DNA from: Patescibacteria group bacterium
GTDB taxonomy: Bacteria; Patescibacteriota; Kazan-3B-28; UBA10110
Assembly (NCBI GenBank): GCA_043802665.1
Contig: JAZDKW010000010.1
Location: 4,024 to 68,023, forward strand
Length of the DNA stretch: 64,000 nucleotides
Direction of reading: 5' to 3'
This document shows positions 11,807 through 14,093 of the stretch, piece after piece. The notes under the pieces were generated by a model, which saw only the letters and a program-made list of their open reading frames with translations, did no database searches and was not told the origin of the DNA. The first letter of the stretch is position 1. The number at the start of each line of letters is the position of its first letter. Both the position numbers and the translations under genes were made by a program.

Positions 11807-13435
11807 ATGAAATATTTTATCTACACTCGAAAATCAACGGACAGCGAAGAACGACAGATTTTAAGTATTGAATCCCAGATTTCCGAATTGAAAGAATTTG
11901 CCGCCAAAGAAAAACTTGAAATCGTCGCCTCGCTTAGCGAGGCAAAAACTGCCAAAGAACCTGGCCGAACCGTGTTCGGCGAAATGCTCGATCGGATTGA
12001 AAAGGGCGAAGCCCAAGGAATTTTGGCTTGGCATCCGGATAGATTAGCTCGCAATTCAATTGACGGTGGTAAAATCATTTATTTGCTGGACACAGGAAAG
12101 ATCAAGGACTTGAAATTTCCCACATTTTGGTTTGACTCAACGCCACAAGGAAAATTTATGATGAACATTGCCTTTGGCCAAAGCAAATATTATATCGACA
12201 ATCTAAGCGAAAATATAAAACGAGGACATCGGGCAAAACTGCGAAAAGGAATTTGGCCAAACTTTGCCCCGCTTGGTTATTTGAATAATCATAAGACGAG
12301 AGGAATTGATATTGATAACGAAAAAGCACCGTTTGTCAGAAAAGCATTTGAACTTTATTCAACGGGAGAATATACATTAAAAGCTGTTGCGATAATTTTA
12401 GATCAAGCGGGGCTAAGAAGCTATAAAGGCAATGTTCTTTCGGTTTCCTGTGTCCAGCGACTTTTGCAGAACTCGATTTACTATGGCATATTTTCTTTCA
12501 ACGGTGAAATCTATGACGGAACGCACGAGCCGATTATTCCCAAGAAACTTTTTGATTCTGTTCAACAAGTAATGAGCAACCGAGGCAAAAAGAAACGCAA
12601 ACGAAAACACGAATTTGCTTTTCCGGGATTGATGAAATGCGGGAATTGCGACTGCCTGATAACTGCTGAAAAACAAAAAGGACACCACTATTATCGTTGC
12701 ACCAAGAAAAAGCAAACCTGTAATGAAAAATATTTGCGGGAAGAAAATCTTGTTGAACAGATGAAAGGAATTATTCAAAAAGTTTCTTTGCCTGATGACT
12801 GGGCAAATAATATGCTTGCCGAGATAGACAAAGAAAAAGAGCAAGTGAGAGAAGAAACGAAAGTTTTTGTTCAAAATCTCCAAGCTCAAAAAACAGAGAT
12901 CGAAAGCAAAGCTGAAAACCTGCTTGATTTGTTTATCGGTGGCAAAGGCATTGAACCCGAGGAATATCAAGCCAAAAAATCAAAGCTGCTTAACGAGAAG
13001 CAGGACATTTTGGTAAAGATAAGAGATTTTGAACAAAAAGGAAATAATTGGCTCGAACCGATGAAAGAAATGATTTTAGCCAGTAGCCAAGCCAAAATTC
13101 TTTTGTCGCAAAGCGACAATCAAGAAATCCGAGCATTTCTCAAAAATATCGGCTCGAACTTCATTTTGAAAGATAAAAAATTCCGATTTGCGCTTAAAAT
13201 CGGCTGGCGAGCCCTCGCAGAGGGCGAGCCAACAAAGACATTTCCCAACTGGCGGAGAGGGCGGGATTCGAACCCGCGGTGCCTGAAAAGGCACACAGAC
13301 TTTCCAGGTCTGCTAGTTAAACCACTCCTACACCTCTCCAGGTCTTACTTTGTAAATGCAAACTGTTTATATTATCACCTTTATTCTGCTTTACATCTAA
13401 CCATTCCGAGTATTTGTTTAAAATCCGCGGGTTAG
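11807..13435 (+). CDS. Large serine recombinase (resolvase/invertase catalytic domain, recombinase domain, zinc-ribbon). The ORF has no stop until 13435, so it runs through IR-b and tRNA-Ser; the true C-terminus is probably at or before about 13250.
   Basis: N-terminal YTRKSTDSEERQILSIESQ (catalytic Ser), LAWHPDRLARN, and Cys cluster CGNCDCLITAEKQKGHHYYRC typical of large serine recombinases; AAGGAG ribosome-binding site. Confidence 0.8.
   Translation: MKYFIYTRKSTDSEERQILSIESQISELKEFAAKEKLEIVASLSEAKTAKEPGRTVFGEMLDRIEKGEAQGILAWHPDRLARNSIDGGKIIYLLDTGKIKDLKFPTFWFDSTPQGKFMMNIAFGQSKYYIDNLSENIKRGHRAKLRKGIWPNFAPLGYLNNHKTRGIDIDNEKAPFVRKAFELYSTGEYTLKAVAIILDQAGLRSYKGNVLSVSCVQRLLQNSIYYGIFSFNGEIYDGTHEPIIPKKLFDSVQQVMSNRGKKKRKRKHEFAFPGLMKCGNCDCLITAEKQKGHHYYRCTKKKQTCNEKYLREENLVEQMKGIIQKVSLPDDWANNMLAEIDKEKEQVREETKVFVQNLQAQKTEIESKAENLLDLFIGGKGIEPEEYQAKKSKLLNEKQDILVKIRDFEQKGNNWLEPMKEMILASSQAKILLSQSDNQEIRAFLKNIGSNFILKDKKFRFALKIGWRALAEGEPTKTFPNWRRGRDSNPRCLKRHTDFPGLLVKPLLHLSRSYFVNANCLYYHLYSALHLTIPSICLKSAG
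13169..13248. repeat. IR-b right copy (80 bp), abutting the tRNA-Ser 3' end.
   Basis: See 11657..11736. Confidence 0.85.
13250..13339 (-). tRNA. tRNA-Ser (anticodon GGA), class II with a long variable arm.
   Basis: Manual fold: GGAGAGG/CCTCTCC acceptor, D-stem TAG/CTA, anticodon stem CAGAC/GTCTG with loop CTGGAAA, variable-arm hairpin GTGCC…GGCAC, T-arm GCGGGTTCGAATCCCGC, 3' GCCA. Confidence 0.85.
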
Positions 13436-14054
13436 ACGAACCAAAAATATTCAAATAAGAAATCACGCTTGGAACGCTGTATAAATAGATTCTTCTCCCT
13501 TCATCGGTGATGTGCGGATTTATCCCGACTTCCTTTAGGATCTTCGCTGTGGAAATAATCAGTTTTTTAGAAGAATTGGTGAAACAGAAACCAATATTAT
13601 GGTATGGCGCATTCCTTACAATATGGTTATGTATGAATAAGCAGCCATCTGTATCCACACATCCTCTGACAAATGCTTTCTGGTATTCAGGATTGTCATT
13701 TATCCATTTTGGAATATCAATTTGTTGAACAACTTTGTTCCCCCTTACTGCACCTTTACCGACTAGAAAATCTAATAGGTTGCTCCCCGAACAAATAAGA
13801 ACTAACGCATTTTGATTAGGCCTTTTTCTAATATACACGTTGATCTCAAATAATTTTCTTAAGAGTCTGTCAATGTACTGCGAATATTCCAGATCAGAAT
13901 TAGAGTTGAGGGTAATGACAAGTTGCCAATCATTGTTTATTCCTCCGTCACCAAAAATAATCCCAAATAATTCTGCCAGTTCCTTTGATTCGTTAGGAAT
14001 ATTAACAATTTTTCTGTGGCTTTTCTTAGGATATTTTAGTAACGAATAATCCAT
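13317..14054 (-). CDS. Double-motif LAGLIDADG homing endonuclease; its last 23 nt overlap the 5' end of tRNA-Ser(GGA).
   Basis: LAELFGIIFGDGGI (motif 1) and FVRGCVDTDGCL (motif 2); AT-rich. Confidence 0.85.
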   Translation of the reverse strand: MDYSLLKYPKKSHRKIVNIPNESKELAELFGIIFGDGGINNDWQLVITLNSNSDLEYSQYIDRLLRKLFEINVYIRKRPNQNALVLICSGSNLLDFLVGKGAVRGNKVVQQIDIPKWINDNPEYQKAFVRGCVDTDGCLFIHNHIVRNAPYHNIGFCFTNSSKKLIISTAKILKEVGINPHITDEGRRIYLYSVPSVISYLNIFGSSNPRILNKYSEWLDVKQNKGDNINSLHLQSKTWRGVGVV

Positions 14055-14067
14055 TGTTTAATAAATT

Positions 14068-14093
14068 GCACTCGGCCACTATGCGACCTCTCC
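14068..14093 (-). other. tRNA-Ser-like 5' fragment (acceptor plus class-II D-arm) 14 nt upstream of the endonuclease start.
   Basis: Minus strand reads GGAGAGGTC-GCA-TAGTGGCCGAG-TGC; shares GGAGAGGT with the intact tRNA. Confidence 0.3.

Follow-up and report, generated by a model that had tools for sequence, protein, structure and literature searches.

In a Patescibacteria genome, the resident tRNA-Ser(GGA) gene has probably been invaded by a mobile LAGLIDADG homing endonuclease cassette, which would itself have repaired the damage done to that gene. The locus lies in a stretch of 64,000 nucleotides (nt) of contig JAZDKW010000010.1 (assembly GCA_043802665.1, positions 4,024 to 68,023), here called the window. 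The native gene, recognizable by its 'TCGCATAGTGGCCGAGTGC' D-arm and a conserved promoter motif, ends after nt 27 of the tRNA in the window, and the portion brought by the cassette, together with the T-arm and the 3' strand of the acceptor stem, makes up a complete canonical tRNA. The pairing of endonuclease and tRNA-Ser is phylum-wide, with the window locus as one instance of it, and no description of LAGLIDADG genes linked to tRNA-Ser in bacteria was found in the literature searched.

Anatomy of the locus and its endonuclease

The locus is read on the minus strand and begins with a conserved promoter-like motif, CTGCTACAATAATAAGGTAATT (14111..14132, with a TACAAT box at 14128..14123). This is followed by an orphan 27-nt tRNA-Ser 5' part, GGAGAGGTCGCATAGTGGCCGAGTGCA (14067..14093), which contains the 5' strand of the acceptor stem, U8, and a complete 4-bp D-arm (GCAT/GTGC; loop AGTGGCCGA) and ends 13 nt ahead of the endonuclease ATG. 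Between the two stands an AT-rich leader of 12 nt, ATTTATTAAACA (14055..14066), which is not tRNA-like and would form the left end of the inserted block. The endonuclease gene (13317..14054; 245 amino acids), identified by an open reading frame (ORF) call and by Pfam PF14528, overlaps with its 3' end the first 23 nt of a whole tRNA-Ser(GGA) gene (13250..13339), which scores 55 bits against Rfam RF00005 (gathering score 29) and is also called by ARAGORN. The TAA stop of the endonuclease (13319..13317) is part of the TTTAA in the tRNA D-loop (D-loop sequence GGTTTAA), and tRNA nt -1 to 23 encode the final seven codons of the endonuclease together with this stop. The first-pass annotation had placed the ORF, the tRNA, the D-loop overlap, and the stop within the tRNA at the same positions, and the ORF call, ARAGORN, and Rfam agree with it on all of them. 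A terminator-like hairpin with a T-run (13174..13203, minus strand), picked up by a consensus scan 47 nt 3' of the tRNA, is probably the end of a transcription unit that comprises the promoter, the fragment, the endonuclease gene, and the tRNA.

The encoded protein scores 45.3 bits against the Pfam family LAGLIDADG_3 (PF14528; cut-off 22.5) and contains two LAGLIDADG motifs, LFGIIFGDG (D36) and VRGCVDTDG (D136), each with a conserved acidic residue; among 26 homologues, D136 is invariant and D36 is conserved in at least 90%. An AlphaFold model has two domains, with a predicted local distance difference test score (pLDDT) of 84.9 and a predicted template modelling score (pTM) of 0.83, and residues 227-245, which span the seven residues encoded within the tRNA (W-R-G-V-G-V-V), are disordered in it. 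A phmmer search of the protein against PDB sequences gave no meaningful match, and a fold search was used instead. The top solved structures in Foldseek were I-Tsp061I, an archaeal intron enzyme (E 3e-12), and I-DmoI, with E-DreI, PI-SceI, and I-AniI also among the matches, and the AlphaFold model and the Foldseek matches together display the expected twice-repeated alpha-beta-beta-alpha-beta-beta-alpha fold. By its motifs, profile, and modelled fold, the protein is accordingly classified as a single-chain, two-domain LAGLIDADG homing endonuclease, for which cleavage activity is predicted. Its homologues number in the hundreds, and all of those with a named source come from Patescibacteria. 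Among six members of the clade, the ratio of nonsynonymous to synonymous substitution rates (dN/dS) is 0.06-0.16, with a synonymous divergence (dS) of at least 0.6 and above 1 in most pairs, and the gene is therefore under strong purifying selection, which maintains the protein. An extension of the ORF by 63 nt (amino acids 219-239) was considered as a decayed older tRNA copy and rejected, its similarity to the tRNA not exceeding that of shuffled sequences in five of six genomes (p 0.2-0.8; gapped p 0.02 in L087; L-numbers are labels of loci in related genomes, and WIN is the window locus).

The invaded site and its empty counterparts

The 8-mer GGAGAGGT, common to the orphan fragment and the intact tRNA, occurs six times in the window against 1.45 expected and is by itself weak evidence for a tRNA origin of the fragment. 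The presence of the acceptor strand, U8, and the complete D-arm identifies the fragment as a whole tRNA 5' module instead of a chance 8-mer match. The 27-mer matches the 5' end of the intact tRNA-Ser(GGA) of L212 at 27 of 27 positions and is identical to that of L211 over 26/26, and nhmmer with a tRNA-Ser profile aligned the fragment to profile positions 1-29. The first-pass annotation had taken the fragment for a tRNA-Ser 5' part, which is upheld by the match to L212, but had made it one base too short and had given the gap to the ATG as 14 nt. The fragment and its junction (GTGCA followed by ATTTAT) recur in L006, L086, and L089, where ATTTAT stands directly 3' of the fragment as it does in WIN, and a variant form occurs in L088; since four independent assemblies share it, an assembly artefact is ruled out. 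L007 and L087 have no fragment and L004 has a decayed one, yet the endonuclease gene and the tRNA are intact in all three, which makes the fragment dispensable.

Empty sites were sought through homologues of bS6, a marker independent of the endonuclease, whose gene in the window is divergent and adjoins the locus. Five further Patescibacteria contexts (L210, L211, L212, L213/L214, and L215) have the gene order S6-SSB-S18-EFP-YchF as in the window, and all five carry an intact native-type tRNA-Ser(GGA) in the corresponding place without an endonuclease. The D-arm of these empty-site tRNAs reads 'TCGCATAGTGGCC.AGTGC', with a close variant in L213, and the motif CTGCTACAATAATAAGGTAAT is located 5' of the intact tRNA in L210, L213, and L215. 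In L006 and L086, too, the motif CTGCTACAATAATAAGGTAATT precedes the orphan fragment, and it is presumably the native promoter of tRNA-Ser(GGA), which would now stand 5' of the fragment and the endonuclease gene. A consensus promoter scan did not flag the conserved motif upstream of the fragment, and conservation is the one ground for assigning it a promoter function. The type of D-arm was native in five of five empty sites and foreign, with a TTTAA loop, in six of six occupied genomes of the host group (WIN, L001/L006, L086, L089, L087, and L002/L007). A scan of metagenomes for intact native-type tRNA-Ser(GGA) returned at least 120 matches; among the matches listed, none of the 54 metagenomic tRNAs with at least 800 nt of upstream sequence had an endonuclease, and S6 synteny was seen at none of 80 metagenomic native-type tRNA loci. 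Short endonuclease matches beside native-type tRNAs (L133, L157, and L096) were rejected as endonuclease remnants, being a peptidase or translated tRNA.

In a neighbour-joining host tree of S6+SSB(+S18+EFP), occupied and empty genomes are interleaved. For example, the host proteins of the empty L215 are 90-92% identical to those of the occupied L001 and L086, and the window genome is nearest to four empty genomes (82-84%), compared with 78.5% identity to L001 and 67.7% to L002. Presence/absence polymorphism at one locus, as looked for in a mobile element, was thus found in the S6-operon context, with five empty and six occupied sites. An endonuclease invasion of a tRNA-Ser gene had been suggested at first pass, and these empty-site relatives, along with the family-wide linkage described below, support it.

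Comparison with the native alleles also indicates which part of the tRNA was replaced. The final 29 nt of the window tRNA (T-arm, 3' strand of the acceptor stem, and CCA; 13250..13278, minus strand) are identical to those of the native L212 tRNA, and this part is indistinguishable from the native allele. Differences from L210-L215, which carry native alleles, lie in the D-arm, anticodon stem, nt 32, and variable arm. The foreign-type part (nt 1-61; 13279..13339, minus strand) is characterized by the D-arm TAG/CTA, the TTTAA loop, the anticodon stem CAGAC/GTCTG, and the variable arm. Because the window tRNA equals that of L212 over its last 29 nt only, the foreign block would begin at the ATTTAT leader, include the ORF, and reach about tRNA nt 61 or possibly the end of the tRNA. 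Native tRNA nt 28 to about 61 have been lost, and nt 1-27 are left upstream as a scar.

The partial target duplication that had been proposed for the locus does not fit these data, as the two 5' parts agree at just 14 of 27 positions; the upstream one is of the native host type, and the one fused to the ORF belongs to a foreign type that accompanies the endonuclease. The same dissimilarity speaks against a tandem repeat of the tRNA 5' region that arose locally, or an att duplication by a neighbouring serine-recombinase element, with the endonuclease present by chance. A large serine recombinase does abut the tRNA, and short integrase-type repeats of tRNA 3' ends occur elsewhere (in L001 and at a tRNA-Ala in the window). 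However, the recombinase lies on the 3' side of the tRNA, no tRNA repeat of at least 11 nt was found at the far end of its island, and the fragment and the endonuclease occur together in the recombinase-free genomes L006, L086, and L089. In addition, the upstream copy is the native allele of the empty-site relatives, and the downstream copy is of the type that goes with the endonuclease in distant hosts. The repeat also differs from the product of an integrase in consisting of the 5' part of the tRNA and in enclosing the nuclease gene only, and a duplication of either kind is very unlikely.

As a genuine tRNA-Ser 5' part, the orphan fragment joined to tRNA nt 28-90 would also fold as a canonical tRNA-Ser. 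It could on that ground be exon 1, with the endonuclease ORF and the second 5' part forming a spliced intron (group I or bulge-helix-bulge), and both intron residence and the upstream fragment as the true exon had been raised in the first-pass annotation. Group I introns are known in tRNA and rRNA genes of Patescibacteria (PMC13011429; PMC11270868), but known bacterial tRNA introns are located in the anticodon loop (PMC13011429). An Rfam cmscan over 12900..14500 at E<=10 detected tRNA only, with no group I or other ribozyme. The sole non-coding sequence between the fragment and tRNA nt 28 is 12 nt before the ATG and 4 nt past the stop, so that the ORF fills the interval; the downstream tRNA is complete without splicing; most family members have no fragment; and in L007, L087, and L004 the fragment is absent or decayed, as described above. 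These findings led to the rejection of the exon-1 alternative, and an intron of any kind at this site is extremely improbable. The archaeal splicing endonuclease is not known from bacteria, which also counts against an intron.

Family-wide linkage and the proposed mechanism

Linkage of the endonuclease to tRNA-Ser was assessed at 80 loci, taken from genomes that each represent a species. At 77 of them, a tRNA-Ser begins on the same strand at -106 to +122 nt (median -19) relative to the point where the endonuclease homology ends, and the other three are cut by contig ends, with a truncated tRNA-Ser still visible in one. All complete loci (77/77, each from a different species) therefore have the homologue directly 5' of a tRNA-Ser. 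Close homologues are paired with the anticodon GGA (47 loci), and distant homologues (35-45% identity, about 335 amino acids) with GCT (22), CGA (6), and TGA (2). The commonest layout is the 23-nt overlap (19 loci), in which the proteins end in W-R/K-G/D-A/V-R/G-V/A-V with a stop in the D-loop; in shorter proteins, the codon of an invariant Trp218 is formed by tRNA T(-1)G1G2. The tails of L017, L030, L033, and L035 read W-R/K-G-A-stop-V/A-V/A-stop, with an in-frame TGA within the tRNA overlap, which is consistent with genomes that read UGA as glycine (code 25). Orphan 5' tRNA-Ser fragments occur just ahead of the ATG in about 9-12 of the 80 loci, distant subfamilies included, compared with 0-2 in control windows.

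A linkage that is complete over 77 species, combined with strong purifying selection at the dS values given above, might also be expected of a domesticated, non-mobile LAGLIDADG protein coupled to tRNA-Ser, for example as a regulator or processing factor. The tRNA half would then be kept for a role at the RNA level, such as an alternative pairing with the tRNA 3' half that shields the mRNA from RNase P. The conservation of the fragment past neutral expectation (see below), the canonical tRNA that it would form with the tRNA 3' part, and the presence of WhiA, a domesticated LAGLIDADG protein, among the fold matches all favour such a role. Domestication is nevertheless unlikely, because close empty-site relatives with a normal tRNA imply that the protein is dispensable, and both catalytic aspartates are kept, unlike in WhiA. 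The fragment is also missing from most loci and from close relatives with an intact gene, and in L032, as well as in L036 and L014 (one mismatch each), its acceptor strand is not fully pairable with the 3' strand of the resident tRNA.

Invasion by a self-repairing cassette would proceed as follows. The enzyme would cut a native-type tRNA-Ser(GGA) gene near the boundary of the D-arm and the anticodon stem, and the break would be repaired by copying the allele that bears the cassette, with the sequence of the orphan 27-mer and the 3' part of the tRNA serving as homology arms. The new allele would be uncuttable owing to its foreign D-arm, anticodon stem, and variable arm. The endonuclease would be transcribed from the promoter of the tRNA itself, within the tRNA precursor, and the transcript would end at the hairpin at 13203..13174. 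Cleavage of this transcript by RNase P at 13339/13340 would strip the last seven codons and the stop from the endonuclease mRNA.

Several observations weigh against this explanation. Within the clade, the orphan fragment varies at only 1-3 of 27 positions and is more conserved than the four-fold degenerate sites of the endonuclease gene (44-65% identical; P 1e-7 to 4e-3), which is not expected of an equally old neutral scar. It can be accounted for only if a conserved native tRNA has been freshly invaded time and again or if the fragment is under constraint, for example as a homology arm or transcript start. The distances among the endonucleases approximately parallel those among the hosts (82% identity between WIN and L001, compared with 78.5% for host proteins), and the locus may have persisted vertically for long periods with allele replacement. 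The tRNA sequences follow neither the endonuclease tree nor the host tree. For instance, the tRNA-Ser(GGA) of L001 is identical to that of WIN at 90/90 positions, although the host proteins are 78.5% identical, and those of L086 and L089 agree at 88/90 positions with host S6 and SSB at 72%. L001 and L086 are sister hosts (92% identical) with sister endonucleases, yet have clearly different tRNAs, and the history of the locus appears from these comparisons to be mosaic. In L014 and L034, the endonuclease gene is followed by a decayed foreign-type pseudo-tRNA and then by an intact native-type tRNA-Ser(GGA), a layout that a single simple insertion model does not predict. Finally, the cleavage specificity, the cut site, and the transcript structure are all inferred from sequence. 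The pseudo-tRNAs of the latter two loci are located at 2660..2751 in L014 (e.g., GGATGAGTACAAGAACGGTTTAATTTACAG) and at 2655..2731 in L034, and in L014 an orphan native 5' fragment, located upstream, brings the tRNA-derived pieces in that one locus to three.

A wider and more speculative possibility, offered tentatively, is that the family constitutes a distinct phylum-wide class of bacterial mobile elements, 'tRNA-patching' homing cassettes, each made up of a nuclease gene and a cleavage-resistant tRNA-Ser 5' module and driving horizontal replacement of tRNA-Ser across the Patescibacteria. Such cassettes would be expressed within the tRNA precursor, and the stop in the D-loop would make RNase P maturation and full translation of the nuclease mutually exclusive for each transcript, giving low-level expression coupled to processing. 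The retained orphan half may in this case be a left homology arm or a competing pairing partner. On the main reading alone, homing endonuclease genes would have, besides introns and inteins, a third means of residing in an essential gene, namely to carry a replacement piece of their target, and the 77/77 complete loci, each from another species, suggest that this replacement strategy acts on bacterial tRNA genes at scale. The tRNA-Ser sequences of Patescibacteria would in part be horizontally exchanged modules, which bears on tRNA-based phylogeny and on annotation. An ORF with its stop inside a tRNA also provides a system for studying the coupling of tRNA processing to the expression of a selfish gene, and if its members are active and cut tRNA-Ser genes as proposed, the family would be a source of meganucleases with a conserved target.

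Known systems and neighbouring elements

The closest known analogue is the mobile ORF (mORF) of fungal mitochondria, and the window locus appears to work alike while lying outside the described set. In these elements, LAGLIDADG or GIY-YIG ORFs inserted in atp6, atp9, cox2, or nad3 carry a foreign C-terminal part of the gene, with the native C-terminus left as a remnant (Glomus sp.; PMC3630166), and an atp6 case in Allomyces macrogynus is cited in the same paper. As in the window, the endonuclease ORF of an mORF continues in phase into a foreign copy of one part of the gene that it has entered, and the resulting hybrid works without the need for an intron or intein; the displaced native part is kept beside the insert as an unused remnant and matches relatives, the inserted part being divergent. 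The mORFs differ in occupying mitochondrial protein genes, whereas the window locus is a tRNA gene on a bacterial chromosome, and in replacing the 3' (C-terminal) part; the window locus is the mirror image, with the 5' portion replaced and the remnant upstream. Also unlike an mORF, the window ORF enters a structural RNA whose D-loop gives the stop, and its linkage is family-wide across the phylum.

Other systems share single features with the locus. SegB of phage T4 is likewise encoded by a free-standing endonuclease gene without intron or intein among or next to tRNA genes, and when it cuts an allele that lacks the endonuclease, flanking tRNA sequence is co-converted (PMC2330249), a step that may also take place at the window locus. 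It differs in belonging to the GIY-YIG family, in its phage host, and in an intergenic position without tRNA overlap or fragment scar. The LAGLIDADG enzymes of rRNA introns in archaea and Patescibacteria (I-Tsp061I and I-DmoI; PMC11270868) have the same fold and two-motif single chain, and those of Patescibacteria come from the same phylum as the window. The window locus differs from them in having no intron, a tRNA-Ser target, and a protein without phmmer-detectable similarity to solved enzymes. Similarly, integrases that act at tRNA genes bring in with the incoming DNA a copy of the disrupted tRNA part, and the gene stays functional, but they replace the 3' end by a near-identical copy and leave a direct repeat, whereas in the window a nuclease gene is involved and the 5' two-thirds are replaced by a divergent copy. 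A survey of tRNA introns in Patescibacteria describes tRNA-Asn introns with HNH enzymes and makes no mention of the arrangement seen in the window (PMC13011429), and a survey of rRNA insertions does not mention tRNA (PMC11270868).

The serine recombinase that abuts the locus is encoded by an ORF on the plus strand (11807..13435; Pfam Resolvase, Recombinase, and Zn_ribbon_recom), which converges on the tRNA-Ser and runs antisense through it. Its island probably extends over about 7.9-13.25 kb and includes methyltransferase, SLH-domain, and FabH-like genes. Seven other endonuclease loci likewise have a recombinase homologue in convergent orientation to the tRNA-Ser (L062, L029, L052, L083, L027, L068, and L046), with the anticodons GGA and GCT, and the recombinase ORF enters or crosses the tRNA in five of the seven (L062, L029, L052, L083, and L027). 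Insertions of about 140-165 nt straight after tRNA genes, with the tRNA 3' end directly repeated at their borders, resemble miniature elements or the scars of integration. For example, the 3' end of tRNA-Ala(GGC) in the window is repeated at 37356..37390 and 37520..37554 (18 nt exact), and that of the L001 tRNA-Ser(GGA) at 3786..3805 and 3949..3968 (20 nt exact); a further case is found in L004 (3908..3940).

A second locus with a nuclease gene ahead of tRNA-Ser is present in the window on the minus strand (54846..55392). It consists of a tRNA-Ser(GCT) 5' copy truncated in the T-arm (55392..55216), a GIY-YIG ORF of 79 amino acids (55198..54959; PF01541, E 1e-14), and an intact tRNA-Ser(GCT) (54938..54846). 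Apart from three GC-rich hairpins inserted in its D-loop and T-loop (about 20, 18, and 57 nt), the truncated copy agrees with the intact gene, and the two are 100% identical over one stretch of 55 nt. GC-rich palindromic repeats resembling TGYCCCGCGTATGCTGGG occur in the window at 18626..18643, 19449..19466, 55248..55265, and 55334..55351, two of them inside the broken tRNA-Ser(GCT) copy.

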